This document shows, one piece after another, positions 1,702-45,975 of a DNA stretch of 46,958 nucleotides. The number at the start of each line of letters is the position of its first letter. Position 1 is the stretch's first letter. The notes under the pieces were generated by a model that saw only the letters and a list, made by a program, of their open reading frames with translations, was not told the origin of the DNA and searched no databases. Position numbers and translations under genes: made by a program. Source of the stretch: an uncultured Candidatus Bathyarchaeia archaeon (GTDB lineage Archaea; Thermoproteota; Bathyarchaeia; Bathyarchaeales; Bathyarchaeaceae); assembly GCA_964347855.1 (NCBI GenBank), contig CAYGAE010000002.1, positions 1 through 46,958 on the forward strand, read 5' to 3'.

Positions 1702-1980
1702 GTGATGAAAAGAATGTACGAGAAAGGTTTGCCAGAAAAAGCGGTTCAAAAGTCACTTGAGTCAAAACTCAAAGGGGATTTCACCTACGATTCCAGAAGG
1801 ATTTTGGGGGCGCGCAAAACCGATGTCAAGTCGATAGCTGAAGAGTTGAGAAGAAGCCGCTGGGCTATCTCCCTTTTTCCAGGGTACATTAGAGTTGTGA
1901 TCATGCCAGACGTCAGATCTTCGCCTATCGAACATTTTCCTAAAGATTTGAAGACAACTCCAGAGAAGCTAGGGGGATAA
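1702..1980 (+). pseudogene. internally deleted remnant of MfnA-type PLP-dependent (aspartate/tyrosine) decarboxylase, still in frame
   Basis: 92-aa ORF. The first ~33 aa (MYEKGLPEKAVQKSLESKLKGDFTYDSRRILG) resemble the MfnA N-terminus. The last ~50 aa (SIAEELRRSRWAIS...YIRVVIMPDVRSSPIEHF) resemble the MfnA C-terminus. About 300 central codons, including the PLP-lysine region, are absent. The junction carries GCGCGC (1810-1815). Confidence 0.55.
1810..1815. repeat. GCGCGC at the deletion junction of the decarboxylase remnant
   Basis: Read directly: ttggggGCGCGCaaaac. It lies between the N- and C-terminal homology blocks. Confidence 0.9.
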
Positions 1981-1995
1981 TCGGAGGACTATTGG

Positions 1996-3255
1996 TTGAG
2001 TAAACATCCTTCCAAAGACATCATTGGAACAGAAGGAGACGAACTGAGAGGGAAAAGAGTTGTCTTATGTATAACCGGAAGCGTAGCGGCCGTTCGTTGC
2101 TCTGAAATTGCCAGAGCATTGATGAGGCATGGTGCAGAGGTTTTTGCTGTCATGTCAGAGATGGCTCAAAAGATTATTCATCCGTATTTAATGGAGTGGG
2201 CGACAGGGAACCCTGTTCTAACAGAATTGACCGGCAAGGTTGAGCACGTAGCACTGGTAGGGATGCATCTGAAAAAAGCTGATTTAGTCCTTGCTGCTCC
2301 AGCTACTGCCAACACCATCAGCAAGATTGCGTGCGGGATTGATGATACGCCAGTAACCTCTGTTGTATCAACTGCTTTTGGATCGGAGATTCCGATAGTG
2401 ATTGTTCCAGCCATGCACGAATCTATGTACAGGCATCCGATTGTGGTTGAGAACATAGAGAAGCTCAGAGCGTTGGGTATCGAATTTGTTGGACCCAAGA
2501 TTGAGGAAGGGAAGGCTAAGATAGCCGAGGTCACAAAAATTCTGGAGGCTGTTATCAACAGACTGAGGATTAAGAGAGATTTCGCTGAAATGATGGTCTT
2601 GATCACTGCCGGTCCCACTTTGGAGCACATTGATCCAGTGAGGGTGATTACGAATAGAAGTTCTGGGAAGATGGGTATTGCCCTTGCAAAGGAGGCTTTA
2701 AATCGGGGGGCTGATGTGACTTTAATCTATGGTCCGGGAACCGCCGTTCCTCCCACTGAGGCAAAGGTTGTTTTAGTTGAAACTACTGAAGAAATGTATG
2801 ACACTGTAGTTTCTGAGTTGAAGTCGAAGAGATACGACATTGTTGTTGCAGCTGCGGCTGCCGCCGATTGGAGACCCGTGAAAACCCTTGATTACAAGGT
2901 TTCTACGAGTGATGTATCTGAGTTTTCAGTGAAGCTGAGGTCAACACAAAAGATCATTAGCGCTGTTAAGACGATCAATGCTGATGTTTTCTTGGTGCCT
3001 TTTAAGGCGGAGTTTAGCTTGTCTAATGAAGAGTTGGTTGAGCGTGGTTATAGGCGACTTGTGGACGCGGAAGCCGACTTGATTGTGGTGAATGATATTG
3101 GAAGAAATGGAGCTGGATTCGGGGTCGAAACAAACGAGGTCTTCATCGTCGATAGAGAAAAGAATGTTGTACATATCCCACTTATGCTGAAAAGCGACAT
3201 TGCGAGACAAGTTTTTGACTTGATTTCAGAAAGAATCAAGTTAAAACAGGTGTAA
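1996..3255 (+). CDS. coaBC: bifunctional phosphopantothenoylcysteine decarboxylase / phosphopantothenate-cysteine ligase
   Basis: 419 aa. N-terminal flavoprotein domain (VVLCITGSVAA, PAMH) plus C-terminal DFP/CoaB domain (ITAGPT.E.IDPVR.ITN.SSGKMG). TTG start. Confidence 0.9.
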   Translation: MSKHPSKDIIGTEGDELRGKRVVLCITGSVAAVRCSEIARALMRHGAEVFAVMSEMAQKIIHPYLMEWATGNPVLTELTGKVEHVALVGMHLKKADLVLAAPATANTISKIACGIDDTPVTSVVSTAFGSEIPIVIVPAMHESMYRHPIVVENIEKLRALGIEFVGPKIEEGKAKIAEVTKILEAVINRLRIKRDFAEMMVLITAGPTLEHIDPVRVITNRSSGKMGIALAKEALNRGADVTLIYGPGTAVPPTEAKVVLVETTEEMYDTVVSELKSKRYDIVVAAAAAADWRPVKTLDYKVSTSDVSEFSVKLRSTQKIISAVKTINADVFLVPFKAEFSLSNEELVERGYRRLVDAEADLIVVNDIGRNGAGFGVETNEVFIVDREKNVVHIPLMLKSDIARQVFDLISERIKLKQV

Positions 3256-3261
3256 TAATCC

Positions 3262-3729
3262 ATGAAGCAGTTTGAGACAGTAGCTGTTGGTGGAACCTTT
3301 GACGAGTTCCATAGAGGTCACCGAGCCTTGCTGAAGAAGGCTTTTGAAGTTGGAAATCATGTTCTTATCGGTCTATGTTCAGACGATTTCGTGAAAAAGT
3401 TGAAGAAACCGCATCGAATCGCGGCCTATGAAAAGCGTTTGGAAGAATTGAAGAATTTTTTGGGAAAACGTGGGGTCTTGGAGAGAGCGGAGATCGTTCC
3501 ATTGAATGACCCTTATGGTGTCACGGTTTCGAAAAACCGCCTCGATGCCATTGTTGTGAGTGAGGAAACAGAGCCAAGAGCTCGTGAAATTAATGACAAA
3601 CGAAAGAGGAACGGATTCCCAATCTTAAAGATTGTTGTCATAGACATGGTCCTCGCAGAAGACTATTTTCCCATCTCATCCACCAGAATTTGGCTAGAAG
3701 AAATTGATCGCGAAGGACACTTGCTCTAG
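3262..3729 (+). CDS. coaD: phosphopantetheine adenylyltransferase, archaeal/eukaryotic type (cytidylyltransferase fold)
   Basis: 155 aa with GGTFDEFHRGH nucleotidyltransferase motif. Immediately downstream of coaBC. Confidence 0.8.
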   Translation: MKQFETVAVGGTFDEFHRGHRALLKKAFEVGNHVLIGLCSDDFVKKLKKPHRIAAYEKRLEELKNFLGKRGVLERAEIVPLNDPYGVTVSKNRLDAIVVSEETEPRAREINDKRKRNGFPILKIVVIDMVLAEDYFPISSTRIWLEEIDREGHLL

Positions 3730-3818
3730 AGTCATTCCTCAGAAGGGCATGCTTAGAGGATTATTCTATCTACATTCCCTACTAGAACACGAGTGATGTC
3801 TTGAAGAGAACTGGTGTT

Positions 3819-3827
3819 GCGCGCGCG
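3819..3827. repeat. alternating (GC) tract, 9 nt
   Basis: ttGCGCGCGCGtgtgcg, a 15-nt Pu/Py alternation. It sits in a convergent gap, 11 nt past the stop of gene 3838-4248. Confidence 0.95.
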
Positions 3828-3837
3828 TGTGCGTTGT

Positions 3838-4248
3838 CTAGCGAGCTTCAGCCCATGCCCTATGTCTACTTATCTTACATATATCAGGGTGTGTGTGGGG
3901 GGTTTTGTATATGTGAAATTCGAATTGCAGTGATTTGCTTTCGTTGCTTGTTAAATAGATTCTCTGGGTTTCCATTCCATACATCCCTGGACTGGAGATT
4001 TCGCAATGAACGGTAACCTGACCCTCAGCACCATTATTCTCTACTGTGACATTAACTACATATGTACATGATTCAACTCCTTGGAAGGCCATATACCCAG
4101 TTACGAGCGTTATTTTGGGGTTAGGGGGGTGTACTGTGTTCATAACCAATGTCAAGCACCAAGCTACCAAAAAAGTGTAGAGTAACATTAAGAGAATTCT
4201 GCGCTTGCGCGCCTGTAGCCACGACCTCATCTCACTCATAGGTCTCAT
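3838..4248 (-). CDS. hypothetical membrane-anchored protein
   Basis: 136 aa: basic N-terminus, one hydrophobic helix (ILLMLLYTFLVAWCLTLV), then a beta-rich, N-x-S/T-rich domain. No family recognised. Confidence 0.5.
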   Translation of the reverse strand: MRPMSEMRSWLQARKRRILLMLLYTFLVAWCLTLVMNTVHPPNPKITLVTGYMAFQGVESCTYVVNVTVENNGAEGQVTVHCEISSPGMYGMETQRIYLTSNESKSLQFEFHIYKTPHTHPDICKISRHRAWAEAR

Positions 4249-4345
4249 CCAGAAGTGTCAGAGTTCATCGAATTGTCACGCGTTACAAGTCGCATTTGGA
4301 ATTTCACGCATATTTCAGGACCAGTTTTCTCTAGATCGATGTCTC

Positions 4346-5155
4346 TCAAGGTTGAGTGTTGGTTGTGGTGGATGTTATCGCTCGCTTTTCTTTGGTTGGT
4401 ACAAGAACGGATAAGAATAGCCAACCAACGAGGATTAACCCTAAGAAAGCGACAATCACAGTTCCAGTCCTGCCCGTAGATCGCATAAGCAAGTCTACTA
4501 CTGCAGTGTAGAAGTTACCCTCGATTGGGCGTATGAACAGCGCATAATAGTTAAAGAATGGACGTAAGACCCACGCCAGTTGGGTTCCAACAAACATAAG
4601 GATCACGCTTCCCAGTATAAACGCTGGCTTCCAGTTCTCTGAAGACCCACGGTACAAAGTTTCGGCACCTTTGACAAAATAGGTCAACGCAAAAAATCCG
4701 CCCAAAGCGAAAATCGCTATGTTGAGAAGAGCCATAAAGTCATGAGTTCCATGAGACCTGGGGGACGTAAGTATAAAAAACAGGTTTACTGGCACCAACG
4801 CTATGAGAACTGTTGACATCACGGTGAACCCAAGCAACAAAAGCATAACAGTTTGACCCAGAGTTCGTTTGCCGCCAAGAAGTGAATATAGCACATAATA
4901 GCTTGGAATGGAAACGTAAAGAGAAACTAGAAGGAGCATTGGAACTTTCATCGCACTGTAGAGAATCTGTAATCCGCTCCCATAGATTCCCATAGTCGCT
5001 CCATAGATCGCAGACAGTACCAGAATAGATAAGTTGGAGCTGACAAAATAGGATGGAATTTTTGTTTCATCAATCAAGTTCTTGAGAAATTGATCTCTCC
5101 GCTTGATAAATTCTTCCACAACAGAGAATACTTTCAATACGAACGCCGAAAACAT
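4346..5155 (-). CDS. polytopic integral membrane protein, family unassigned
   Basis: 269 aa with 5-6 hydrophobic segments. A TATA-like TTTAAATTTTT (5174-5184) lies ~20-25 nt upstream of the ATG, suggesting a leaderless transcript. Confidence 0.6.
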   Translation of the reverse strand: MFSAFVLKVFSVVEEFIKRRDQFLKNLIDETKIPSYFVSSNLSILVLSAIYGATMGIYGSGLQILYSAMKVPMLLLVSLYVSIPSYYVLYSLLGGKRTLGQTVMLLLLGFTVMSTVLIALVPVNLFFILTSPRSHGTHDFMALLNIAIFALGGFFALTYFVKGAETLYRGSSENWKPAFILGSVILMFVGTQLAWVLRPFFNYYALFIRPIEGNFYTAVVDLLMRSTGRTGTVIVAFLGLILVGWLFLSVLVPTKEKRAITSTTTNTQP

Positions 5156-5173
5156 AGTTGTGGGAAACTTCGC

Positions 5174-5184
5174 TTTAAATTTTT
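5174..5184 (-). promoter_or_regulatory. putative TATA box of membrane gene 4346-5155 (leaderless spacing)
   Basis: Minus strand reads AAAAATTTAAA ~20-29 nt upstream of ATG 5155, directly abutting the (GC)4 tract. Confidence 0.35.
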
Positions 5185-5185
5185 G

Positions 5186-5193
5186 GCGCGCGC
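5186..5193. repeat. alternating (GC)4 tract
   Basis: ttgGCGCGCGCaatag. Immediately upstream of the TATA-like box of the minus-strand membrane gene, and at the 5-prime edge of the HhH remnant. Confidence 0.95.
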
Positions 5194-5513
5194 AATAGAA
5201 AGCTGTGAAGCGGGCTACGAGTTTCAGCCGAGGAATTATGAGGAGTTGCTGGCTATCAGAGGAATTGGACCAGTAGCCGTTTGTGGGATCGCTTTGATAT
5301 CAGAACTTGTTTACGGCGAAACACTAAGTTGGAAGGATCCTGTGAAGTTTTCCCTTTGCGTATTGTGGTAAGGACGGCGTGTCGTTTCCATTGGATAGAG
5401 GGGCAGTGGATGAGTCCTTTGAGGTTTTAGAGACTGCCATCAAGAGGGCGCGGATAGGTGATCAAGAGCGGTTGAGGTCTTTGCAGAGGCTACGCCGATG
5501 TGTTCCTGTTTGA
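5194..5513 (+). pseudogene. 5-prime-truncated, frameshifted remnant of an HhH-containing (DUF763-like) gene
   Basis: One frame reads NYEELLAIRGIGPVAVCGIALISELVYGETLSWKDPVKF and stops at 5369-5371. The +1 frame continues FAYCGKDGVSFPLDRGAVDESFEVLETAIKRARIG... to TGA at 5511-5513. No N-terminal ~280 aa is present, and homology begins directly after the (GC)4 tract at 5186-5193. Confidence 0.45.
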
Positions 5514-5515
5514 AA

Positions 5516-6892
5516 TTATGGGCTTTTTAGCACTTTTTCTTCAGGTGGAGAGGGCGGGATAAGTCCTTTTTTCATTAGGATTTTCGTTGATTCTCTTGCA
5601 TTCTTTATAATTGAGACAGCTCTGTCCCAAAGCTCCTTCCTACTCGGCTTAACTCTGGCAACACCGTCCTTGATCGACTGTAGAGCGCAGGCAACTGCTT
5701 CTCGGGGGTAAACTTCCCATTCTTCCATTCTGGGTACTATGTCGCCTTCATGGATTCCTCTTTCGTCTGCGAATTTGGCTAGTTCCTTCCCTGCTGAGAT
5801 GCACATGTCATCGGTAACGGTTTTCGCCTTCACATCGAGAACGCCTCTAAAGATTCCTGGAAAGCCTAGAGAATTGTTGATCTGATTTTCGAAGTCCGAT
5901 CGCCCTGTCGCCACGATTTTAGCGCCGGCTTCCTTTGCTTCCCATGGCCAGATCTCCGGGATTGGGTTTGCACATGCGAAGACTATGGAGTTTGTCGCCA
6001 TCTTAGTTATCCATTCCTTGTTTATGGTGCCTGGACCCGGTTTTGACGCGGCTACGAGGGCATCTGAGTCCTTCAGCGCGGCTGCCATGTCTCCTGTTCT
6101 TCCTTCGGCGTTTGTTTTCAGGCAGAAGTCCCACTTCCATGGATTTTCCTCCTTCTCTGCTTCTACGTCTTTTCTGTTTGGGTGGAGAATTCCTCTGCTA
6201 TCGACCATTATGATGTTTCCAGGTTTTATGCCAGCTCTCATGAGGACTATCGCTGTGCGGGTGTTGGCGGAGCCTGCGCCGATCATGGTTATCAAGGCTT
6301 CATCCATCTTTCTGCCCGTGATTTTTAGGGCGTTTATTATCCCCGCCAATATAACTGTGGCTGTTCCTTGTTGATCGTCATGCCACACCGGAATGTTGAG
6401 CCGTTTTCTAGTTTCTTCAAGTATGTGGAAGCATTTTGGTTTGGATAGGTCTTCTAAGTTTATGCCGCCAAAGGTAGGTTCCAACCATTCGCAGGCGGTT
6501 ATGATCTCTTCTGGGTCCTTTGTGCCCAGGCAGATTGGGAAGGCGTCTACGCCGCCTAGGTATTTGAAGAGTAATGCCTTTCCTTCCATGACTGGTAGTC
6601 CTGCCTCCGGTCCTATGTCTCCTAATCCGAGGACTCTTGTCCCGTCGCTGACGACCGCTACGTAGTTCCACCGGTTTGTATAGCGGAAGACCTCCTCTGT
6701 TTTTTCTTTGATGACTCGACATGGAGCAGCGACGCCTGGTGTATACCAGATTCCGAAGTCTTTTGGGCTTTTTATGGAGCATTTGGGCATAACTTGGATT
6801 TTTCCCTCGTAAAAGGTGTGATAGGCTAGAGCGAGTTTGGCGGGTTTCTTGGCTTTTTCCAGTAGTTCGTCGACTGTGAGTTTCTTGGTCAT
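5516..6892 (-). CDS. NAD(P)-dependent malic enzyme (oxaloacetate-decarboxylating malate dehydrogenase)
   Basis: 458 aa with malic-enzyme motifs YTPGVA, VVSDGTRVLGLGDIG, PVMEGKALLFK, GINLEDL and GAGSA. Confidence 0.9.
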   Translation of the reverse strand: MTKKLTVDELLEKAKKPAKLALAYHTFYEGKIQVMPKCSIKSPKDFGIWYTPGVAAPCRVIKEKTEEVFRYTNRWNYVAVVSDGTRVLGLGDIGPEAGLPVMEGKALLFKYLGGVDAFPICLGTKDPEEIITACEWLEPTFGGINLEDLSKPKCFHILEETRKRLNIPVWHDDQQGTATVILAGIINALKITGRKMDEALITMIGAGSANTRTAIVLMRAGIKPGNIIMVDSRGILHPNRKDVEAEKEENPWKWDFCLKTNAEGRTGDMAAALKDSDALVAASKPGPGTINKEWITKMATNSIVFACANPIPEIWPWEAKEAGAKIVATGRSDFENQINNSLGFPGIFRGVLDVKAKTVTDDMCISAGKELAKFADERGIHEGDIVPRMEEWEVYPREAVACALQSIKDGVARVKPSRKELWDRAVSIIKNARESTKILMKKGLIPPSPPEEKVLKSP

Positions 6893-8595: not shown

Positions 8596-9231
8596 ATGAA
8601 GGAAGCGATAATCCTGGCTGGTGGGGAAGGATGGAGACTTAAACCTGCCACTTGGGTTCCGAAACCTTTGGTGAAGATCAACAAAGAAACCCTAATAGAC
8701 CGGCAAATAATATGGCTACAAAATTACAGCTTCGAAAACATAGTCATAGCTTCAAACAGGGAAGACCTTACAAAATTACCCGTCAAGTATTCTCTAGAAA
8801 AGGATGCGCTTGGAACTGGTGGTGCAACTAAAGAGGCGTTCAAACAGATAAAGGGTAAAATAGCCTACGTGATGAACGTAGACGACATAGTCTTCTATGA
8901 CCCAAACATACTCTACGACTATGCAGCAAAAGGAGCAGGTGTACTGCTTGCCAAACCAACGTTACCCTTCGGAAGAGTAACCGTTCAAAATGGGATAGAA
9001 GTGACAAGATTCCAGCAGAGATCAACGCTTGATGCCTACGTAAACGCCGGTCACTATGTATTTAAGAAACCCGTGGTTGAAAGATACTTCCCTGAAAAGG
9101 GAGACTTGGAATTCACGACAATGCAGAGACTAGCAGATCAAAAGATGCTGAGAGGCTACACGTATCATGGAATGTGGATCACAATAAACACCATGAAGGA
9201 CCTCCTCCAAGCCAGAACGTTCTTCAAATAA
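8596..9231 (+). CDS. sugar-phosphate nucleotidyltransferase
   Basis: 211 aa with N-terminal AIILAGGEGWRLKP...PKPLV motif of the NTP_transferase family. Confidence 0.8.
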   Translation: MKEAIILAGGEGWRLKPATWVPKPLVKINKETLIDRQIIWLQNYSFENIVIASNREDLTKLPVKYSLEKDALGTGGATKEAFKQIKGKIAYVMNVDDIVFYDPNILYDYAAKGAGVLLAKPTLPFGRVTVQNGIEVTRFQQRSTLDAYVNAGHYVFKKPVVERYFPEKGDLEFTTMQRLADQKMLRGYTYHGMWITINTMKDLLQARTFFK

Positions 9232-13789: not shown

Positions 13790-13796
13790 GCGCGCG
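13790..13796. repeat. alternating (GC)3.5 tract
   Basis: tttGCGCGCGtatac, intergenic. Confidence 0.9.
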
Positions 13797-14167: not shown

Positions 14168-15097
14168 CTATTCGTCAAGTTTTGCAGAAAGTGTTGGGCG
14201 CCTGTGGGTTTTCCACTGTTTTCTTGCCTGGCAGAATAAATACTCTTGCGCATACCCAGCGTATTCTCCGAAATATTTTCTTCCAAAGGAGCTAATTTTC
14301 TTATATTCATTTGGTGTAATCGACTTCTTACTCAAAGCCTTCTCGACAAATGACCTCTTGAAATAGTCAGTGTAGAAGTCCAACATTATTCGTTTCATCC
14401 AGACATCCACTGGAAATGTCTCAAGCTTATCCAAGGAAAACAGAAGAACACAATCTGCAACCTTCTGTCCAACACCTGGTAACGATAACAATTCGCGTCT
14501 TGCTCTCTCGTAGCTCATCTCCTTTAAGGCTTCAAGCTCAAGGCATTTCTTGTGTATGGTTTTAGAAGCCTTCAAGACATGTATAGCCCGAAATCCAAGT
14601 TTGCATGCTCTTAGTTCTTCAAGGTTGGCGTTGGCTATGTCTTCCGGTTTTGGAAACGTATAAAAAGCATAGTCGTCAAAAGCTACCTTTCTTCCGAACC
14701 GTTTTGAAAGACTGAGAATCATTTCTCGGATGGCTGGAATGTTCTTGTACGTTGCACAAATGTATGAAATTAGGCATTCCCACGGCTCTTGCCTAATGAT
14801 TCTTAATCCTTGAAAATCCTGAATGGCCTTGCATATGTGTTCATCCTTATCCAACTTGGAAAGAATATACGGCAAATCGTCGTCCAACCGGAAGTGCTTC
14901 ACCACGAAACTAGCGCTTTCTATCGCGGGACAACTTTCAAAATCTAACCGGTTACCGATGTGTTTTATCTTCACAATCTTTTCTCCAATAACGCCATACC
15001 ACCACTGGTCATGTTTTTCCCAGCGAAAAGACTGCCCACACGTTAAAGTGTGTTCAAGGTTGAAAGGTGTGACTGCTAGATCGAATCTGATGTTCAC
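14168..15097 (-). CDS. ogg: 8-oxoguanine DNA glycosylase / AP lyase (HhH-GPD family)
   Basis: 309 aa with N-terminal LTCGQSFRW and the HhH-GPD segment LLSLPGVGQKVADCVLLFSL...FPVDVW. Confidence 0.85.
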   Translation of the reverse strand: MNIRFDLAVTPFNLEHTLTCGQSFRWEKHDQWWYGVIGEKIVKIKHIGNRLDFESCPAIESASFVVKHFRLDDDLPYILSKLDKDEHICKAIQDFQGLRIIRQEPWECLISYICATYKNIPAIREMILSLSKRFGRKVAFDDYAFYTFPKPEDIANANLEELRACKLGFRAIHVLKASKTIHKKCLELEALKEMSYERARRELLSLPGVGQKVADCVLLFSLDKLETFPVDVWMKRIMLDFYTDYFKRSFVEKALSKKSITPNEYKKISSFGRKYFGEYAGYAQEYLFCQARKQWKTHRRPTLSAKLDE

Positions 15098-20459: not shown

Positions 20460-20476
20460 TGCAAGCTAAGTGTACA

Positions 20477-20483
20477 CGCGCGC
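20477..20483. repeat. alternating (CG)3.5 tract
   Basis: tgtacaCGCGCGCactt, a 15-nt Pu/Py alternation. Intergenic between tag and lrp. Confidence 0.9.
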
Positions 20484-27734: not shown

Positions 27735-27745
27735 GCGCGCGCGCG
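27735..27745. repeat. alternating (GC)5.5 tract
   Basis: cctGCGCGCGCGCGatg. 22 nt upstream of TTTTAATATT (27768-27777), the putative hdrC1 TATA box. Confidence 0.95.
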
Positions 27746-28285: not shown

Positions 28286-29157
28286 ACCTTACATTATTCC
28301 TTGGATGCAATATTCCAACCCAAGTCTTCAACTATGAAGCCTCAGTCAGGAGAATTGCAGCCGCCTTTGGGATCAAGCTCAAAGATAACGTGGAGTTTGG
28401 TTGTTGCGGTGAGCTTACAGAAGCCATAGATTATTACACATCTCTCGTTTTTTCTGCAAGGAATATTGCCCTGGCAGAGAAGGAAGAGCAAGACATCTTA
28501 ACCTTGTGTAACGGATGTTTCTCTTCATTGAACAAAGCGATTTTCGCGCTAAATGATCCTCACTTGAGAAGCAGAGTCAACGAAGCCCTAAAAAAAATAG
28601 ATCTCTCCTACAAGGGGAAATCGCGCGTGTTTCACTTTCACCAACTGATGTACGATATCGTTGGACCTTCAAAGATTAAGGAAAAGATAGTTTTAAATTT
28701 GAACAATGTATCAGTTTCCTGCCATAACGGCTGCCACATCCTCAGACCAAGCGATGTTCTTGGATTCGACGATCCCCAAAATCCGAAGAAACTCGAAGAA
28801 CTTGTGGGATTGACAGGAGCTAAAATCGTTAAGCCAATAGGAATCGAACAATGCTGCGGATCGGTTCTGTCACTCTGTGATCTAGACGCCGCCCAATCAC
28901 TGGCAATAGAGTCTATTGAAAGAAAAGGCGAAGTGGATGCAATAGTGGTCGGTTGCCCTTTTTGTTTCAAACAATTTGATATGGGGCAAGTCGTCGCCAG
29001 AAAGAAATTCAACAAAGAATTAAGCATTCCCATACTCTTTTACGCCGAACTTCTTGGGCTGGCTCTCGGACTTAGACCAGAAGATCTTGGACTTAACATT
29101 GTCCATAAGATACGCACAGACGGGTTCTTGGAGAAGTTGGGGGTTTCTAATGGGTAG
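28282..29157 (+). CDS. hdrB: heterodisulfide reductase subunit B-like (two CCG domains)
   Basis: 291 aa. FGCCGE and EQCCGS with the associated CxxC/CPFC cysteines are typical of CCG domains. Confidence 0.85.
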   Translation: MNLTLFLGCNIPTQVFNYEASVRRIAAAFGIKLKDNVEFGCCGELTEAIDYYTSLVFSARNIALAEKEEQDILTLCNGCFSSLNKAIFALNDPHLRSRVNEALKKIDLSYKGKSRVFHFHQLMYDIVGPSKIKEKIVLNLNNVSVSCHNGCHILRPSDVLGFDDPQNPKKLEELVGLTGAKIVKPIGIEQCCGSVLSLCDLDAAQSLAIESIERKGEVDAIVVGCPFCFKQFDMGQVVARKKFNKELSIPILFYAELLGLALGLRPEDLGLNIVHKIRTDGFLEKLGVSNG

Positions 29158-36588: not shown

Positions 36589-39500
36589 GCAATCACCTTT
36601 GCCGCTCTTATCTGCGATATGAGTTGTTGATCAGTGAAATGTGTAATGCTAATTGCTCTTTCGGGGCATGACGCGGCACAAACACCGCAACCTTTGCACG
36701 CCGCCAAAATGACTTCTGCTTTTCCATCATCACCAATTTCAACAGCGTTGAATGGGCATAGGAACACACAAAGTTCGCACCCTACACATTTTTCTTTGTC
36801 TGTTATACGACTAACGATCACCTCGCTTTCAATGTAGTCCTTTGAAAGAATTGTCGTAGCTCTTGACGCTGCTGCGCTCGCCTGTGCTATGCTCTCGTAG
36901 ATCATCTTCGGGTAATGGGCGGTTCCGCATACAAATACTCCATCCGTTGCAAAATCAACGGGCCTAAGCTTCACGTGGGCCTCCAAGAAGAAACCATTTG
37001 GATCTAAAGGCACCTTAAATAGTCTGCTAATCTTTTCGTAATCCTTGTGTGGAGTTATTGCACTGCTCAGCACCACATAATCGGCGTGGAGGACCAACTT
37101 TTCCTTCAACAGGAGTTCGTCAACCGTAACAGATAGGTTTTCAGGGTCCACAACTGGTTTGTGTTCATCTGTATATCTAATGAAAACTACACCCATACTT
37201 CTTGCAACGTTGTAGATGGTCTCCCAGATTCCATATGCCCTAACATCCCTGTATAATATGTACACCTCCGTTTCCAAGCTCATCTTCTTGATGTTTATCG
37301 CGTTCTTTATGGCTTCACTGCAACAAACCCTTGAGCAGTAGGTTCTACCTTCATTTTCTCTGGAACCGACGCACTGGATCATAACAACAGTCTTTGCGTT
37401 GAACCCTTTCTTAAGCATCTGTTCCAAGTCTTCTTGGGTAATTATTCGTTCGTTTTCTCCGTAATAGTAGTAGCCCGCAGGTTCCAGTACACTGGCCCCA
37501 ACAGCGATAATTGCAGCTCCGAATTCGATTTCCTTAGAACCTTCCGGAGTTGTTATTATTGCCTTGAAGTCACCGAGGTGGCCAGTTACTGCCTCTACTT
37601 CTGATTCAAGAAATATCTTTATCCGCGGATCGCTTTTCACTTTGTGAACAATTTCCTTCAGGAGGTCATATGTCTTGGTCCCATCTTGGATTTTCCATAT
37701 GTTCTTGATAAACCCGCCTAGGGTGCTATTCTTTTCAACAAGGTAGACCTCGAATCCTTGATTTGCAATATCTAGGCTGGCAGTGATTCCGGCTATTCCT
37801 CCACCTAGCACCAACGCCTTCTGCGTAACCGGGATCATTCGTCTTTTCAGTGGCTTCAACAGTCTTGCTTTTGCAACCGCTATATCTATGAGATTCTTAG
37901 CCTTCGCTGTAGCTCTCTCTTTTTGATTCATGTGTACCCAAGAGCACTGTTCGCGGACGTTACAGAACTCAAAAAGATATGGGTTCAAACCGGCTTCCTT
38001 CAATGTGTTTTGGAAGAGGTGTTCGTGAGTTCTGGGGGTGCACGATGCAACTACAATTCTGTTCAAGTCCTTTTCTTCTATCACCTCTTTTATTCTCTCT
38101 AGAGTTTCTTGGGAGCATGTGTAGAGGTTTTCTTCACAGTGAATAACATTGTCCAGTGTGCCAACATATTTGACCACTTCGGGTACATTTATGACACCCC
38201 CAATGTTGATGCCGCAGTTACAGACAAACACACCAACCCGAGGTTCTTCCTCAATCTGGCGTTCTTCCGGAAATTCCTTTTCGATGGTCAACTGGTTCTT
38301 AGCAGATGAAAGTAGGGCCTTAGCCTTAGCAGCGGCTCCGCATGCCTGTGCTACACAATCTGGTATGTCTTTTGGACCTTGAGCTGTTCCACAAACGTAT
38401 ACACCTTCTATATTGGTCTCCAGTGGCTTGTTAAGTCTTGTTTTGACGTAACCATATTCATTCAGCTCTAGATTCAACATTTTCGCTAATTTTTCCAGCG
38501 ATTTTGGTGGCTTCAACCCAACTGAAAGGACCACAAGATCAAGGTCTATAGTCTTGAATTCGTTGTCTTTCGGGTCCTCATAGTAGATTGTGAGAAGATC
38601 ACTGTTTACGTTTCCTTTCACCTCAACATCTTTGCACCTGATGTATTTGATATTATATTCATCCTCAGCTCTTTTTGTAAACTCCTCAAACCCTTTTCCA
38701 TAAGCTCTCAAATCTATGAAAAATATGTGCACGTCTAGTTCTGGGTCGTGTTCTTTTGCGACTATGGCTTCTTTTGTCGCGTACATGCAGCAGACGGCGG
38801 AGCACAATTCCCTCCCTATGCTGGGGTCCCTCGACCCAACGCACTGAATAAACCCAATCTTCTTTGGTTTTGTCCCGTCTGAAGGCTTGATTATAGATCC
38901 CTTTGTGGGTCCACTTGCGCTCAGAAACCTCTCAAATTCCGTAGATGTAACTACATTCTCGTGCTTGTAGTTCAATACGGCTTCAAGTGCTGGATCATAA
39001 GGTTCTGCGCCAGTAGAAACGATAATGCCCCCAACCTTCAAACTCACATTTTCATCTTTTTGGGCAAAGTTCACGGCCTTGGCTTCACAAATCTTCTCGC
39101 ATATCCGACAAACATCTTTGGTGAAGTAAAGACAGTGTTTCTTATCGATTAAGGCGACAAGAGGGACCGCTTGAGGGAGAGGAACCCTTATGCTCTTAGT
39201 AAGACCGATGTTCTCATTCATCACATCTGGAATTTTTACTGGACATTTCGAAGAACATGTTCCACACCCTGTACACCTTTGCTCGTCCACAAACCTCGCT
39301 TTCTTACGCAACTCGATTTCGAAATCTCCTGCCTTCCCGGTAATAGACAGCAATTCACAGTATGTGAGCAACTCTATGTTTGGATGCCGCGAAACCTCGG
39401 CCAATTTGGGAGCCAGAATGCAGATGGCGCAATCATTTGTTGGAAACGTTTTGTCAAGCTGGAGCATCCTTCCCCCAATGGTGGGGCTGTCCTCAATGAG

Positions 39501-41107: not shown

Positions 41108-41115
41108 TATTTATA
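41108..41115 (-). promoter_or_regulatory. putative TATA box of the minus-strand hdr operon
   Basis: Minus strand reads TATAAATA ~49 nt upstream of ATG 41059. A (GC)4 tract lies 12 nt further upstream. Confidence 0.4.
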
Positions 41116-41127
41116 CATTTTGCAATT

Positions 41128-41135
41128 GCGCGCGC
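41128..41135. repeat. alternating (GC)4 tract
   Basis: aattGCGCGCGCtgcc. On the minus strand it lies 12 nt upstream of TATAAATA, the putative hdrC2 TATA box. Confidence 0.95.
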
Positions 41136-41966: not shown

Positions 41967-41976
41967 GCGCGCGCGC
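41967..41976. repeat. alternating (GC)5 tract
   Basis: ggGCGCGCGCGCcgcgctAAAATATATAT. 6 nt upstream of the TATA-like box of the CxxCH gene. Confidence 0.95.
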
Positions 41977-42043: not shown

Positions 42044-42631
42044 ATGAACAAGGAACTGAAGTTGATTCTAGTTGGCATTTCGACATTAATCTTCGTTGGG
42101 GCCTTTTTCAGCGTCACGAATATCTATTCATACCCACAAGGAATAGATAACAAATCTGATGGATGCGGGGGGTGTCATGGCGGCAGCCCTAGCAGTGGAA
42201 CAAGCGTCACCATCAACGGGCTACCTGGGATGTACGAACCTAGTAAAGACTACTCGCTGACTGTCACGGTGACAAGCACCGACGTGCCTGGAAACGATGG
42301 TGGCTTCGACCTCTCAGTAACTGCCGGGACGCTGGTAGTTACAAATGGTACGAACACCCAGTTAATGAGCGGAGAACTTACCCACACAGATGCTGGATGG
42401 CATCAAAGAAGCTGGGCTTTCAACTGGACTGCACCGACAGGAGGTGATGTTACCTTTAACGTTGCCGGATTAGCTGCAGACGGTGGTGGCGACGCTGGCG
42501 GTGACGCGTGGGCCACGTATAACTTCACAATATCTATCATCCCTGAGTTTCCCGGCCTCACACTTTTCCTAGTGCTAGCAGCAGTCACAGTGTTTGTTCT
42601 CTTCTTCACTAGAAGAAGGTCTGCTGGGTAA
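42044..42631 (+). CDS. secreted CxxCH (putative monoheme c-type) protein with PEF-CTERM archaeosortase signal
   Basis: 195 aa: N-terminal signal anchor, a single CGGCH motif, a beta-rich Thr/Gly/Asp-rich domain, and the C-terminal PEFPGLTLFLVLAAVTVFVLFFTRRRS (PEF motif + TM + basic tail). Confidence 0.7.
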   Translation: MNKELKLILVGISTLIFVGAFFSVTNIYSYPQGIDNKSDGCGGCHGGSPSSGTSVTINGLPGMYEPSKDYSLTVTVTSTDVPGNDGGFDLSVTAGTLVVTNGTNTQLMSGELTHTDAGWHQRSWAFNWTAPTGGDVTFNVAGLAADGGGDAGGDAWATYNFTISIIPEFPGLTLFLVLAAVTVFVLFFTRRRSAG

Positions 42632-42653
42632 CAGTGACAAGAAGACACTCTAA

Positions 42654-42661
42654 GCGCGCGC
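42654..42661. repeat. alternating (GC)4 tract
   Basis: taaGCGCGCGCacatt. 23 nt past the stop of the CxxCH gene. Confidence 0.95.
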
Positions 42662-42811
42662 ACATTGTCGCAAGCAACCTAGTATGACACTTTGATTTTG
42701 ACATGTTCTGCAGCTATGATCACGAGCCCTTTTCAAGGCAACGGGAGTTTCAATAGCTTTGCCCGTGCGCACTCGTGTTCCTTTTTGTGCACAGTGGTTG
42801 TCTTCAGGGAG

Positions 42812-43660: not shown

Positions 43661-43843
43661 AGGAATAAAAACCGCAGTAAAGAAGGGGGCTCTTAACGCC
43701 CTAATCCATACAAGAATTCTAACTGCCTTCTTTTCAGAGTTCTCTGACAGTTTCTTTCCCTCTTAAATATCATGCTTCACATCTAGTGTGTTGGATCAAG
43801 ACATATAAAGTGTTGTTTGGCAAACGAGAACTTCCAATAAAAT

Positions 43844-43851
43844 GCGCGCGC
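43844..43851. repeat. alternating (GC)4 tract
   Basis: aaatGCGCGCGCacct. On the minus strand it is directly followed by ATTTTATTGG, upstream of the menA-like gene. Confidence 0.95.
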
Positions 43852-44045: not shown

Positions 44046-44055
44046 GCGCGCGCGC
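44046..44055. repeat. alternating (GC)5 tract
   Basis: acgaGCGCGCGCGCtgaa, in the 560-nt unassigned spacer between menA-like and lysK. Confidence 0.95.
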
Positions 44056-44224
44056 TGAAACTTCCAATTCACCCATTTCGGAACAGATCCAATCTCTCAA
44101 TGTTTGTGGGGTTATCTCACTTCCAATTCTCTTGTTGATTTCGGTGTATCTTCTCCTGAGGTAAACCTCTGTTACTGGAAATACGCGTGCGCCCGGACCC
44201 GAAATGACAACTATAAACCTCGGG

Positions 44225-45838
44225 TCAAAGGGTTTTCTCTGCTTGCGCTTGGATAGCTCTTCTCAATGCATTGATTACGTTTTTGGTTCCCATGGCAATC
44301 ACGTATGGGCCTAGTCGTGGGCCTTCAGGCACTCCCAAAAGAATAGCATAAAGAGCCTTGAAGAGCTTTCTAGGAGGAACTTCATGCTTCCTTGAGACGT
44401 CGAAGATGGCGCTTTGTATCTTGTTTTGGTCCCTTTCCTCTTGGAGGACTTGAATCAGTTCTTCGACAGCCGCCGTTTCTTGACTGCTCAATTTTACGGA
44501 TTTTTCTTTGATTTCAATGAAGTCTCTCACCCAATTTAACGCGAATTCAATTCTCTGTTTCAACCTCTCCGGAGTTTCATCTTTTACGTATCCATATTCT
44601 CGGAGTTTCTCTGTGATATATTCTGTTTCAGCATCTTTTGGAGCAACCTTGGCGAGATATGTGAGTAGATTGTAGGACACATGAATTGTAGGTTCGGTTG
44701 GCGGTTTCAATGACCAGCAGTATTCATAAAGACCTGTGATTTTAGCTAGTTCTTTTTCATCGGCGATAGGTTTTTCTCCAAAGTAGATGCTCTCAAGTTC
44801 GTCCAGTTCGTCCACGTATTGAGGTATGTCAGTAGCAGAGACAGCCCGGGTTCCCACAAAACGTTTCAGAGTAAGCAGAACCAACGACTGGGGTGACCCA
44901 TATCGGAACCACACTTGAGGGGTGAACACGTTTCCCACAGACATGGAAATTCTCCTTCCACTCTTGTCTAGAAACATTTCGTACTGGGCATGCATGGGCG
45001 GCTCATAACCCAGAATCTCTCGGCTGATTCGGTCGTTTACTCTGACAGAATCAGCGATGTCTTTTCCGTATGCTTCAAAGCGTATGTCTAAGGCTTTCCA
45101 TCGAGCGGCGAATTCAGCTTTCCAGCTGAGTTTTCCTTCTCCTTTTCTGTAGTCAACTTCGTCTTGGTGTCCACATCCTTTGAGCCATTTTCCCTTTATT
45201 TCCATTCCTTTGCAGGTGTAGAGGACTTTATTTTCTTTTGGAAGAAACTCGTAGGCCTTTGTCGTGTAAATGCGACCGCAGTTGGAACACACCGGAAAAT
45301 ATGGAAGGGCTTCCTCGTATTTCTCTTGTCCAACTTCTTCTCGAATAATCTGACCTACTCGCTTAGCGTTTATTAGCAATGTTTTGATTTCCTCATTTAG
45401 GATGCCGTCTCTGTAGACTTCTGTTCCCGAGAATAATCTATATTCAATTCTACACTTGTCAAAAGCTTCTTGAAGAAGCCCTATCACATGGGCTCCGAAA
45501 CTCTTATGGCACTTATACGGATCCGGAACGGAAGTAACTGGAAAACCCAAATACTTCTGCAACCAACGTGGAAATCCAGCAGGGACCCTTCTCAGTCCGT
45601 CTTTGTCATCCGAAAAGGCGATTAGTTCCGAACGGAATCCTTGTTCTTGAACAGCCAATGTCACCGCATATGATCTTGCACCGTCTGAGAAACTGCCAAT
45701 GTGGGGAAGACCCGAAGCGCCAATTCCCATCTCAGTCCTGATCAAGTCGAGGCTTCTACCTAGCTTTCGCTCCCTCTCTATGATCTCAACGGCGGTTTTA
45801 TCGTACCAAGTGCCACGCCCAATGATCTCATCAGTCAT
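44225..45838 (-). CDS. lysK: lysine--tRNA ligase, class I
   Basis: 537 aa with an N-terminal Rossmann segment MGIGASGLPHIGSF (HIGH-like). The overall pattern matches archaeal class I LysRS. Confidence 0.9.
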   Translation of the reverse strand: MTDEIIGRGTWYDKTAVEIIERERKLGRSLDLIRTEMGIGASGLPHIGSFSDGARSYAVTLAVQEQGFRSELIAFSDDKDGLRRVPAGFPRWLQKYLGFPVTSVPDPYKCHKSFGAHVIGLLQEAFDKCRIEYRLFSGTEVYRDGILNEEIKTLLINAKRVGQIIREEVGQEKYEEALPYFPVCSNCGRIYTTKAYEFLPKENKVLYTCKGMEIKGKWLKGCGHQDEVDYRKGEGKLSWKAEFAARWKALDIRFEAYGKDIADSVRVNDRISREILGYEPPMHAQYEMFLDKSGRRISMSVGNVFTPQVWFRYGSPQSLVLLTLKRFVGTRAVSATDIPQYVDELDELESIYFGEKPIADEKELAKITGLYEYCWSLKPPTEPTIHVSYNLLTYLAKVAPKDAETEYITEKLREYGYVKDETPERLKQRIEFALNWVRDFIEIKEKSVKLSSQETAAVEELIQVLQEERDQNKIQSAIFDVSRKHEVPPRKLFKALYAILLGVPEGPRLGPYVIAMGTKNVINALRRAIQAQAEKTL

Positions 45839-45967
45839 GAACGGAAGTTTCCTTCGACTGTCTAAGTTAATAGTCCATGTAGTTTAATAAAAATCGTGTC
45901 ACTTGTCTATTTGGAAATCTATGGAGCATGGGTTCGCTTAAACCTAACTCTCTTCCAAATTAAGGAT

Positions 45968-45975
45968 GCGCGCGC
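45968..45975. repeat. alternating (GC)4 tract inside a 14-nt palindrome
   Basis: GATGCGCGCGCATC (45965-45978), between the ccmB stop and the lysK start. Confidence 0.95.

Follow-up and report, generated by a model that had tools for sequence, protein, structure and literature searches.

Why do short alternating G/C tracts recur between the genes of this Bathyarchaeia contig, and do they serve the adjoining promoters or record how the DNA was put together? In the window, i.e., the whole stretch of 46,958 nucleotides that was analysed, all 14 alternating G/C runs listed by the initial annotation were found exactly in place when the letters were rechecked.

Over-representation and identity of the tracts

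Less than one tract of at least 8 nt had been estimated to occur by chance, with nine present. This estimate held, since order 1–3 Markov models built on the window predicted 0.26–0.49 tracts against the nine seen, corresponding to a 20- to 30-fold excess. The non-genic location was likewise upheld: all 11 tracts of at least 7 nt fall outside ORFs of 90 aa or more and, the window being 87% coding, the probability of this is 1.8e-10. The 6-nt versions that had been counted with them were at chance level (three seen, about five expected) and were left out of the element:

1810–1815: GCGCGC, 6 nt, within a 92-aa ORF
4207–4212 and 28622–28627: 6-nt runs

The deletion junction proposed at 1810–1815 was not confirmed, a weak match to the MfnA N-terminus (E 0.08) being all that was obtained. 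Other tracts of the window are the following:

13790–13796: 7-nt tract within a 13-nt alternating purine-pyrimidine run, in the convergent gap between GNAT and OGG genes
20470–20485: 16-nt alternating run GTGTACACGCGCGCAC containing the 7-nt tract 20477–20483, 18 nt past the stop of a methyladenine glycosylase gene
27735–27745: 11-nt tract upstream of the second hdrC-like gene

The run at 20470–20485 looks like a longer tract after decay by transitions.

Across loci, 35 intergenic 8-mers were observed against 1.1 expected, with a 30- to 140-fold intergenic excess, while coding DNA held 4 against 9.4 expected. Tract lengths showed a sharp mode at 8 nt with no steady fall-off, a distribution compatible with a fixed 8-mer plus chance extension (p = 0.43), and GCGCGCGC was preferred over CGCGCGCG by about 3:1. 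This phase preference, together with the 8-nt mode, indicates a specific word rather than a structural tract. Hence, the tracts are copies of a single self-complementary 8-bp palindrome, GCGCGCGC, and the 9- to 11-nt copies are best explained as the same octamer lengthened by chance through neighbouring G/C bases. It is restricted to non-coding DNA, appears through indels and is patchy among related species, some sister species being tract-free; no conserved flanks were found around the octamers.

Next to negligible is the explanation that the tracts arose by chance, by compositional bias, by slippage as in microsatellites or through faulty assembly. In its favour, the 6-nt runs are at chance level, and an order-5 Markov model recovers a large part of the excess, although it does so solely by having learnt the tracts. 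Against it stand the many-fold excess in the window and across loci, the 8-nt mode and the orthologous tracts in several species. Moreover, an 8.6-kb stretch with six tracts was 99.8–99.97% identical and gapless in two NCBI metagenome assemblies, the Logan assemblies of runs ERR2564001 and ERR2564004 matched at 100% over the tracts covered, and no tract length polymorphism was seen between independent assemblies. An assembly artefact was thereby ruled out.

Joints at the DUF763 and hdr loci

At the DUF763 locus, a segment of DNA lies between two tracts:

3819–3827: tract GCGCGCGCG, left seam of the segment replacing the N-terminal part of DUF763
3828–5185, minus strand: inserted segment with two membrane-protein genes (3838–4248 and 4346–5155)
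5173–5185, minus strand: promoter of the second membrane-protein gene, CAAAAATTTAAAG, carried on the inserted segment
5186–5193: tract GCGCGCGC, right seam of the inserted segment
5195–5371, plus strand: C-terminal remnant of the DUF763 gene (Pfam PF05559, profile 254–308 of 319, E 4e-14)

Relatives L141 and L137 carry full-length DUF763 genes (371–378 aa) at the same position, in the conserved order coaD, DUF763, malic enzyme. In the window, about 1.4 kb (3821–5199) stands in place of 782 bp present in L141, both joints being at tract edges. On the left, recipient-type homology (L141, L137) stops at 3820 and donor-type homology (L142) begins at about 3827–3830; the tract is absent from this position in all three. 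On the right, donor-type homology stops at 5186 and recipient-type (DUF763) homology begins at 5194–5200, and the octamer is absent in L141, L137, L140, L142 and L143. Over bases 5186–4359, identity is 88% with L142 and 83% with L143, two relatives in which the gene stands in other contexts, and this identity begins at the base adjoining the tract. Compared with L142, the second gene of the segment runs in the opposite direction. Neither joint shows a target-site duplication. The proposal that remnant homology begins at 5186–5193 was thus not only confirmed, the DUF763 start being at most 2 nt from the tract, but also extended. As far as relatives can stand for the parents, the octamer is shown at both joints to derive from neither parental block.

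A further seam was found at the hdr operon:

41108–41127, minus strand: hdrC promoter, BRE/TATA-like, AATTGCAAAATGTATAAATA, intact beside the seam and conserved in four species
41128–41135: tract GCGCGCGC, forming the seam on the upstream side of the hdrCBA promoter

Homology of the operon to L144 and L145 (84%) stops 0–4 nt from this tract, at GCAAAATGTATAAATA, and the tract is absent from the corresponding position in L144, L147 and L148. At the three window joints, alignment with relatives thus shows the octamer between a pair of blocks that trace back to separate sets of relatives, the hdr joint being comparable on its retained side only.

Gene order between 41 and 46 kb

The gene order from 41 to 46 kb is a permutation of that of the relatives, with an octamer in every gap, so that the initial statement of a tract in each gap from 41.1 to 46.0 kb was borne out throughout:

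41967–41976: tract (GC)5 between a 117-aa gene and the 195-aa CxxCH gene
42654–42661: tract GCGCGCGC, 22 nt past the stop of the 195-aa gene, which converges with menA across this gap
42765–42778: decayed older tract, ACACGAGTGCGCAC on the minus strand, 34–47 nt past the menA stop
43844–43851: tract upstream of menA
44046–44055: tract (GC)5 in the gap without genes between lysS and menA
44181–44200, minus strand: GGGTCC, the first bases of a tRNA-Arg gene, then a degenerate alternating run GCGCACGCGTAT
44225–45902, minus strand: lysS together with the conserved 64 nt upstream of it, a transplant flanked by ccmB and menA, with tracts on either side
45968–45975: tract between ccmB and lysS

Relatives carry the homologue of the 195-aa gene beside ccmB, from which it follows that this gene moved in the window lineage. 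The decayed run at 42765–42778 aligns with an intact (GC)5 of L144 and L145, and menA-side homology to L144 can be traced to 27 nt from the tract at 43844, possibly up to it. In relatives, a tRNA-Arg gene follows lysS, and the lysS spacer aligns to L059, L060 and L068 up to the tRNA start; at the corresponding position, L009 reads GGGTCC and then GCGCGCGC. In L147, menA comes directly after ccmB, and in L144 and L146 other genes occupy the ccmB–menA gap; none of the relatives has lysS at this locus. The tract at 45968 lies 66 nt past the end of lysS-side homology and 115 nt past ccmB-side homology.

Joints, losses and decay in relatives

Similar situations were encountered elsewhere. Homology between L009 and L015 stops exactly at a tract, where the tRNA-Arg gene is truncated after 6 nt. 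In L093, a tract lies about 10 nt from the joint of a protease-gene deletion of about 900 bp. Two gene fragments, one prismane and one radical-SAM activase, terminate no more than 20 nt from a tract. Between identical flanks, L094 has (GC)5 and L093 TCAGTA; these two share one of three tracts at 95% identity. Decay by transitions was seen in L064, L069 and L074, and downstream of menA between the window and L144.

For three or more of the roughly eight junctions in the window to fall 7 nt or less from a tract, the chance probability is 0.003. As a control, 13 tract-free sister pairs were compared, and their 17 breaks were all without a tract. When alignment ends were counted automatically, 6 of the 82 lay no more than 15 nt from a tract, which does not exceed the roughly 7% of the intergenic null. 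Tracts are missing from the joints of integrase-type insertions at tRNA genes (L111, L118/L121).

Origin and meaning of the octamer

These comparisons suggest, tentatively and with a confidence just short of even, that the octamer marks the seams of DNA joined in insertion, replacement, deletion and translocation, and that it is added, and sometimes re-used, at end joining. The marking of seams in this Bathyarchaeia lineage and in scattered relatives is the best explanation of the tracts. The octamer would be inserted as filler or linker during end joining and, because GCGCGCGC pairs with itself, any two octamer-bearing ends could anneal in either orientation. Existing copies may later become favoured sites for further breaks and joins, and would afterwards be neutral and erode by transitions. 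Their placement after stops or upstream of BRE/TATA elements, never in genes, would then reflect joints that survived selection, with no regulatory role. Comparison of orthologous loci, as the initial annotation had proposed, placed tracts at joints, resolved to the base, where DNA had been inserted, replaced or deleted. Its reading as a footprint or hotspot of recombination or excision is therefore supported for the joints but not for a process of loss only, insertions and translocations being marked as well. The base-resolved joints number only about five overall (three in the window, almost to the base), and their parental states come from relatives at 76–88% nucleotide identity rather than from true ancestors, so that a tract could have pre-existed at a joint just before the event. 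No end-joining process is known to add one constant sequence, no candidate enzyme (integrase, transposase, Ku, LigD or PolX) turned up among the window ORFs scanned, and several window seams (43844, 45968) lie 27–115 nt from where homology can last be traced, all of which counts against this reading. The seam location points to an undescribed DNA-joining route rather than to a promoter signal.

A recognition or crossover site of a sequence-specific enzyme (restriction-like nuclease, recombinase or minimal-end transposase) is conceivable but rather doubtful. Gene-sized, octamer-bounded cassettes would be excised, inverted and moved, the site being regenerated at each seam. A dimeric site-specific protein would read just such a sequence: a fixed, perfect palindrome of 8 bp, preferred in one phase and lacking conserved flanks. 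The patchy occurrence among sister species suggests a mobile determinant. The permuted order at 41–46 kb, with its octamer per gap, and the inverted gene of the 3828–5185 segment, an inversion that a palindromic site permits, also agree with it. In L147, one joint abuts the edge of a tract older than the joint itself, common to L148 and L146, which a recombination site fits equally well as filler. Against this, the unrearranged relatives have no site at the three joints, the tract-only indel of L094 would require de novo site creation, no tract-bearing segment was seen in a second copy or a second context, and the DUF763 joints lack a target-site duplication. Besides, 8 bp is short compared with known recombinase sites, and no recombinase or nuclease gene was found among the window ORFs scanned.

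The distribution of tracts relative to genes bears on two further readings. Tract positions track gene 3' ends, not promoters: their density is 0.56 per kb in convergent gaps, 0.26 in tandem and 0.10 in divergent ones, and a stop codon lies within 40 nt of 22 of 63 tracts, a start within 40 nt of only 5. A functional extragenic palindrome at transcript ends (REP-like, acting as terminator aid, mRNA 3' protector or protein roadblock), for which the link to rearrangement would be secondary, the octamer travelling with transcription units or acting as microhomology, is nonetheless unlikely. Densities do follow the number of 3' ends per gap (tract counts in tandem/divergent/convergent gaps: 31/6/24 observed, 35/0/26 predicted), some tracts occur in short same-strand gaps, and TGAAATTGCGCGCGC lies 4–5 nt past the menA stop in L147 and L148, with one change in L146. 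In L001, two tracts separated by 13 nt fold into a hairpin of 8 bp with T-rich sequence behind it, but no better than dinucleotide-preserving shuffles (z = -1.3); a lone perfect 8-nt palindrome is unable to make a useful hairpin, and T-runs follow only about one third of tracts. Tracts are lost or decayed between the close relatives named above, sister species manage without them, and octamers exactly filling the gap between two parental sequences are left unexplained. A promoter-proximal operator or Z-DNA boundary element regulating the hdr genes and their neighbours, as initially envisaged, is very improbable and largely refuted. The claimed TATA proximity, scored as an A/T-rich TATA-like 8-mer within 25 nt of the tract, concerned 64% of window tracts and 56% of random intergenic positions (69% and 67% over all loci), and divergent gaps, with their two promoters, hold the fewest tracts. 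The tracts at 5186, 41128 and 41967 do have BRE/TATA-like elements 0–12 nt downstream; at 5186 and 41128 this is because the rearrangement joint sits directly upstream of a retained promoter, and in L144, L147 and L148 the orthologous hdrC promoters do without a tract. An alternating purine-pyrimidine run at least 4 nt longer than the tract was found for 29% of tracts and 9% of controls, but phase preference and length mode denote a word, not a structure, and a stretch of 8 bp is short for switching from B- to Z-DNA at physiological supercoiling.

Comparison with known systems

No precedent was found for an octamer at seams, the closest cases being HIP1, REP elements and junctional filler nucleotides. 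Junctional fillers (V(D)J N/P nucleotides, NHEJ/MMEJ filler DNA) are likewise non-parental bases exactly between parental sequences, often with 1–2 nt of ambiguity or microhomology per side. Known fillers vary in sequence and length or are copied from nearby DNA, whereas the identical octamer recurs at joints across many species. REP/BIME elements of bacteria are, like the octamer, extragenic, palindromic and lineage-specific, found after genes and in intra-operon gaps and sometimes paired. REPs are imperfect palindromes of 20–40 nt with stem-loops and conserved heads, tied to RAYT transposases; the octamer, with its mere 8 nt, lacks both a loop and conserved flanks, and no transposase was seen.

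Integron cassette arrays resemble the tract loci in that small genes or fragments are separated by a recurring palindromic site (attC), and L009, L007 and the menA–hdrC gap show variable content downstream of a conserved anchor. Known attC sites are structured, span 57–141 bp and lie beside an intI integrase, with cassettes mostly promoterless and co-oriented, whereas the tract segments have an 8-bp site, their own promoters, both orientations and no integrase nearby. Alternating CG sequence is also shared with (CG)n Z-DNA fragile sites and the MauBI site (CGCGCGCG). CG repeats provoke breaks and deletions in model systems, and Type II enzymes recognising alternating CG 8-bp palindromes are known. 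Most tracts fall below the length needed for Z-DNA, and one phase is preferred. The octamer is enriched, while a host genome normally avoids restriction sites, and the ORFs scanned included no restriction-modification gene.

HIP1 (GCGATCGC) of cyanobacteria is similarly a perfect, G+C-rich 8-bp palindrome, many-fold over-represented and lineage-specific. Gupta et al. reportedly described, in 1993, a HIP1-bounded deletion at the smt locus of Synechococcus. The origin of HIP1 is unexplained, and a role as a site of recombination or insertion has been discussed; it is enriched and conserved within genes in all three reading frames, apparently selected and thought to spread by substitution (PMC5861425). 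The octamer, instead, is depleted in coding DNA, arises by indel and decays between relatives, and it is about fivefold rarer and located at seams.

A single octamer underlies the alternating G/C tracts

The 14 alternating G/C runs that the initial annotation lists were all found exactly at their reported positions. In the window, which has a G+C content of 45.4% and a CpG odds ratio of 0.83, nine tracts of at least 8 nt were counted for 0.26–0.49 expected under Markov models of order 1–3, confirming the reported over-representation; the order-5 model gave a higher expected count because it learns the tracts themselves. The confinement to intergenic DNA was also verified, since all 11 tracts of at least 7 nt lay outside ORFs of at least 90 aa in a window that is 87% coding (P = 1.8e-10). 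The three 6-nt runs inside ORFs correspond to chance frequency and were not counted as part of the element.

An assembly artefact had been envisaged, and the tracts withstood this check. Contigs of the NCBI metagenome assemblies GCA_012975005.1 and GCA_012974985.1 code for a LysRS protein identical to that of the window, as do Logan assemblies of the runs ERR2564001 and ERR2564004. The NCBI contigs were 99.8–99.97% identical to the window and aligned ungapped over 8.6 kb containing six tracts, and two Logan contigs matched it at 100% across the tracts covered by each. Slippage of a dinucleotide microsatellite was rejected on the absence of any indel over six tracts among these 99.8–100% identical assemblies, and on the length mode of 8 nt.

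The analysis was then extended to 136 LysRS-centred loci plus the window, minus near-duplicates and three outgroup loci (about 1.56 Mb, 84% coding). These pooled loci contained 70 tracts of at least 8 nt, 61 being intergenic and 9 in called ORFs, several of the latter at ORF ends. Alternating G/C runs were about twofold depleted in coding DNA (4 8-mers for 9.4 expected, 99 6-mers for 200 expected), and the lengths of the intergenic runs were distributed as follows.

Observed and expected numbers of intergenic alternating G/C runs in the pooled loci, by run length
6 nt: 37 observed, 23 expected
7 nt: 21 observed, 4.2 expected
8 nt: 35 observed, 1.1 expected
9 nt: 17 observed, 0.12 expected
10 nt: 7 observed, 0.07 expected
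11 nt: 2 observed, 0 expected

The length mode of the intergenic tracts was sharp, at 8 nt, and the exact 8-mers showed a phase bias of 30:9 in favor of GCGCGCGC (G-phase) over CGCGCGCG (C-phase). The length spectrum was compatible with a fixed 8-mer extended wherever the neighboring base chances to continue the alternation (p = 0.43). Neither k-mer enrichment nor an outward flank logo revealed conserved flanks, only a mild A/T preference being seen at +1. Hence, the tracts are one specific word, and neither a structural tract nor a slippage-driven microsatellite. An extended motif or a MITE around the tracts was likewise discarded, as there was no conserved flank and the TTGGAAG found beside a few tracts was not general. 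For LysRS and the other window proteins tested, the nearest relatives were without exception Candidatus Bathyarchaeia; tract-bearing species were scattered over the LysRS tree, with sister species lacking tracts.

The octamer at joints between unrelated DNA blocks

At the DUF763 locus, the ancestral order is found in L141 and L137, two malic-enzyme relatives of the recipient type, and consists of coaBC, coaD, a full-length DUF763 gene (371–378 aa) and the malic enzyme gene on the opposite strand. Homology of the window to these loci covers 3260–3820 and resumes from 5200, the 782 bp encoding the DUF763 N-terminus being replaced by 3821–5199 in the window. At base level, the left joint reads GGTG(T/C)TGC followed by GCGCGCG, and the right joint GCGCGCGC followed by AAT(A/T)G.AAGC; no tract is present at either position in L141 and L137. 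The inserted block carries a membrane-protein gene widespread in Bathyarchaeia and is 88% identical to L142 and 83% identical to L143, donor-type relatives in which this gene lies in other neighborhoods. Relative to L142, the second gene of the segment is inverted, the one inversion among the rearrangements seen. Homology to L142 and L143 starts at the very base adjoining tract 5186–5193, at the gene's own BRE/TATA CCAAAAATTTAAAG, and both carry unrelated sequence at the octamer position. Thus, at both joints the octamer bridges two parental sequences that can be identified and is absent from each of them. A cut-and-paste transposon or MITE, which would have terminal inverted repeats, a target-site duplication and multiple copies, was rejected: no target-site duplication was found at these joints, where a 782-bp deletion was observed instead, and no segment is repeated elsewhere.

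The hdr/menA/lysS locus offered a second view of such joints. In five menA relatives (L144–L148), the order is ccmB, variable genes, menA, variable genes and hdrCBA, ccmB being immediately beside menA in L147 and menA immediately beside hdrC in L148. The window instead reads ccmB, tract, lysS, decayed tract, tract, tract, menA, tract, 195-aa gene, tract, 117-aa gene, tract and hdrCBA. Homology in the hdr region (84%) stops 0–4 nt from tract 41128–41135, at the upstream edge of the conserved BRE/TATA GCAAAATGTATAAATA, and L144, L147 and L148 have no tract at this position; at this joint, the comparison with relatives covers the retained (hdr) side only. As for lysS, the conserved leader of 64 nt and the downstream spacer of 31 nt arrived along with it, as did GGGTCC. 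In many relatives, lysS precedes a tRNA-Arg gene that starts with these six bases; in the window, they are followed by GCGCACGCGTAT, an alternating run that is degenerate. In the relatives, ccmB has the homologue of the 195-aa CxxCH gene as its neighbor. For three or more of about eight window junctions to fall within 7 nt of a tract, the chance is 0.003.

Similar seams were found in the relatives themselves. The homology between L009 and L015 (81%) stops exactly at the tract at L009 12903, where L015 has tRNA-Arg and L009 has GGGTCC, then GCGCGCGC, then an N-terminal fragment of a radical-SAM activase. Also in L009, the segment at 14556–14777, flanked by tracts on both sides, codes for the C-terminal 70 residues of a Prismane-family protein (E 3e-23). 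About 900 bp of an HtrA-like protease gene that L094 and L071 possess are missing from L093, where a tract lies about 10 nt from the left joint of the deletion and a 12-nt alternating run at the right joint. L137 has 3.8 kb inserted between DUF763 and the malic enzyme gene, with a 7-nt tract at one of the joints.

As a control, 17 rearrangement breaks were inspected in 13 tract-free pairs of sister genomes, and none carried a GC tract. No tract was found either at the joint of a tyrosine-integrase insertion at tRNA-Arg (L111) or at the joint where variable DNA starts right after tRNA-Arg (L118/L121), as would be given by a different joining mechanism. A blind automated count placed 6 of 82 alignment ends within 15 nt of a tract, a share that does not exceed the intergenic null, most of these ends being alignment fade-outs in spacers; the analysis was therefore restricted to joints with real synteny breaks. 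Tract-bounded segments did not recur elsewhere, no second copy of any of them being found in about 1.8 Mb of loci, and repeated or mobile cassettes were rejected on this basis. Sequence comparison places the octamer on base-resolved joints of unrelated blocks, and relatives with the unrearranged sequence lack it there. This supports the recombination footprint that the initial annotation had put forward as its alternative reading.

Placement relative to genes and fate of the tracts

The density of tracts per kb of gap decreased from convergent (0.56) to tandem (0.26) and divergent gaps (0.10; chi-square p 4.5e-5), and the counts per gap type agreed with a model where density tracks the number of gene 3' ends. 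Of 63 tracts, 22 lay within 40 nt of a stop codon and five within 40 nt of a start (p = 0.0015). A TATA-like A/T-rich 8-mer was present within 25 nt of 64% of the window tracts vs. 56% of random intergenic positions, and of 69% vs. 67% over all loci. Proximity to TATA boxes, from which a promoter operator had been proposed, is therefore at the intergenic background level and, together with the 3'-end bias, leaves both the TATA-adjacent pattern and the operator reading unsupported; there was also no fixed spacing to TATA or start, and no enrichment in promoter-bearing gaps. An intrinsic terminator would consist of a G+C-rich hairpin and a T-run behind it; a run of at least four T was found within 50 nt downstream of roughly a third of the stop-proximal tracts. 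A single tract is incapable of forming a hairpin, and a terminator fold was rejected for the double tract of L001, a contig near-identical to the window and the only folding case (–19 kcal/mol, but z = –1.3). Rfam and ARAGORN detected no RNA gene in the window, and none was found at tracts in relatives.

Tracts turn over between relatives. One orthologous site reads CGCGCGCG in L064, GCGCGCACG in L069 and GCGCGTGTA in L074. On the downstream side of menA, L147 and L148 have an intact TGAAATTGCGCGCGC, L146 a copy with one transition, and L144 and the window degraded versions. A second tract, (GC)5 in L144, aligns to ACACGAGTGCGCAC in the window. Between flanks that are identical, L094 carries (GC)5 and L093 TCAGTA, which amounts to a pure indel 3 nt past a stop codon, and other tracts were lost between relatives at 89–95% identity. 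Given this loss and stepwise degradation, the tracts appear to behave as roughly neutral sequence once present, and the excess of intergenic 6- and 7-mers fits one-hit decay products. Purine-pyrimidine alternation exceeding the tract itself by 4 nt or more surrounded 29% of the tracts vs. 9% of controls (p = 3e-6). In L147, DNA unalignable to other species starts where the old menA tract ends on its 3' side, which suggests that existing tracts are also re-used as joints. A flip to Z-DNA would take an alternating purine-pyrimidine run of about 12 bp or more, independently of phase; about 29% of the tracts extended to at least 12 nt as such a run, the mode being 8 nt and the G-phase preferred. 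Altogether, the tracts are one octamer, confined to non-coding DNA and gained or lost by indel, in scattered lineages only.

Possible origin of the octamer

The reading we favor, tentatively and at a little under an even chance, is that the joining of DNA ends adds the octamer, which then becomes a preferred spot for further breaks. Its self-complementarity would allow any two octamer-bearing ends to anneal in either orientation, which matches the observed mix of insertions, deletions, translocations and one inversion. Joints would abut BRE/TATA elements or stop codons because only those sparing whole transcription units survive. The number of joints is small, parental states were deduced from relatives at 76–88% identity, the blind count of alignment ends is not significant, the window scans yielded no enzyme, and we know of no end-joining pathway that adds one constant sequence. 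A stronger version, in which a dedicated DNA-joining pathway of some Bathyarchaeia puts the fixed self-complementary GCGCGCGC at every illegitimate joint, is doubtful. If it existed, GCGCGCGC would be a natural linker or tail annealing any two ends in either orientation, driving transcription-unit shuffling and foreign DNA integration and leaving a datable scar per event.

A site-specific cut-and-rejoin or cassette system reading the octamer would account for the fixed word and its re-use; it leaves the de novo appearance of the octamer unexplained and is, in our opinion, rather unlikely. A REP-like element at transcript ends would account for the 3' bias, but explains neither the exact filling of joints nor the rapid turnover; we consider it improbable. 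A promoter operator or Z-DNA element is very unlikely, TATA proximity being that of the background, and chance or artefact can be practically dismissed since independent assemblies agree.

Scans of the window with Pfam, NCBIfam and PADLOC revealed no integrase, transposase, restriction-modification or end-joining gene. In particular, no RAYT (IS200/IS605-like) transposase was found among the window ORFs, and no Ku, LigD, PolX or AEP polymerase was present in the window.

Comparison with known systems and significance

At the word level, the nearest analogue is HIP1 of cyanobacteria, a hyper-abundant, G+C-rich 8-bp palindrome whose origin is unexplained; the octamer is likewise an 8-bp palindrome many-fold above expectation. 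HIP1 is enriched and conserved inside genes, in all frames and apparently under selection (PMC5861425), whereas the octamer is depleted in coding DNA. Words of the HIP1 type also have cognate DNA methyltransferases. It resembles REP/BIME elements in being extragenic and biased to gene 3' ends. These are imperfect palindromes of 20–40 nt forming a stem-loop, with conserved flanking bases and an associated RAYT transposase, whereas the tracts span 8–11 nt, with no loop and no conserved flanks. At 3819–3827 and 5186–5193, non-parental bases lie exactly between parental sequences, as N/P or filler nucleotides do; however, known fillers vary in sequence and length or copy adjacent DNA, while the octamer is constant across many species. 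Finally, L009, L007 and the menA-hdrC gap have an array-like look reminiscent of integrons. Integron arrays involve an intI integrase, structured attC sites of 57–141 bp and promoterless co-oriented cassettes; here, in contrast, the site is 8 bp, no integrase is found in the window, and the segments have their own BRE/TATA and occur in both orientations. No published description was found of GCGCGCGC, or of alternating GC tracts, for intergenic sites or rearrangement joints in archaea. The octamer was therefore rated outside the known kinds, with a mechanism inferred from a small number of joints.

If the octamer is laid down at joints, it would be a sequence-specific signature of illegitimate recombination, for which we know of no precedent in prokaryotes, and would reveal that a major group of uncultured archaea has a new activity for joining DNA or moving cassettes. 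Each intact or decayed GCGCGCGC would then flag and roughly date a past rearrangement or gene transfer, making genome mosaicism readable directly from the octamers in metagenome-assembled genomes, with a bearing on break repair and foreign DNA uptake in archaea without obvious Ku/LigD. Under the conservative reading, a REP- or HIP-like word attracting breaks, it would still be a previously undescribed repeat family, explaining the differing gene order around lysS, menA and hdr among close relatives.

Additional observations

A second, independent DUF763 remnant (58 aa) was found at the same locus in another species (L138 6337–6513), with no tract nearby; DUF763 seems dispensable and repeatedly lost. 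Within the inserted segment of the window, a (GT)n-like run, ggtgtgtgtgggggg, occurs at 3893–3907 and is partly conserved in L142 (about 8950–8964).

The element integrated at tRNA-Arg in L111 (3110–6795, 3.7 kb) has a 24-bp overlap at its ends, encodes a tyrosine integrase (5847–6755) and an HNH-motif protein (5063–5782), and is missing from L115 despite 93% identity. In about 45 Bathyarchaeia loci (L005–L136), class I lysS is followed by tRNA-Arg(GCG) or tRNA-Gly(CCC) within 28–120 nt, and strain-variable DNA starts directly past this tRNA, of which the window retains the initial six bases only (44195–44200). About 64 nt upstream of the lysS start (window 45839–45902) are around 78% conserved across many Bathyarchaeia, above spacer expectation, and may form a leader or have a regulatory role. 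Between menA and lysS, a gene-free gap of 565 nt contains ACTTCCAAT(TC) as three direct copies (43829–43838, 44059–44070 and 44118–44129), the last two 59 nt apart and each followed by ATTTCGG. These copies could represent a protein-binding array or a small duplicated unit. A target-site duplication by this 10-nt repeat at 43844/44046 was rejected, because the third copy nearby means that there is no clean duplication. The secreted 195-aa CxxCH protein (42044–42631) has a PEF-CTERM-like tail; its gene lies beyond menA in the window lineage, and its homologues directly after ccmB in L144 (7065–7736) and L146 (7795–8421).

The 92-aa ORF at 1702–1980 lies between panB and coaBC, where L137 has no called gene, and may be a gene remnant. 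Its similarity to the N-terminus of an MfnA-type decarboxylase is weak (E 0.08), and the GCGCGC deletion junction assigned to it was not retained, as it could not be placed. Around 38236–38341, in the region of the hdrA paralogues, about 100 nt of the window are unalignable with the otherwise near-identical L001 and L002, and two hdrA copies of roughly 1000 aa may have been collapsed or recombined in one assembly. A short SMC/Rad50-like ATPase (24648–26690, 680 aa) gave hits to SMC, Rad50, LmuB and an SMC-related protein specific to archaea, none of which reached the family cut-off. The protein after it (272 aa; region 24648–27509) shows a faint kleisin-like match, to Nse4_C, and two unannotated genes lie upstream on the opposite strand.
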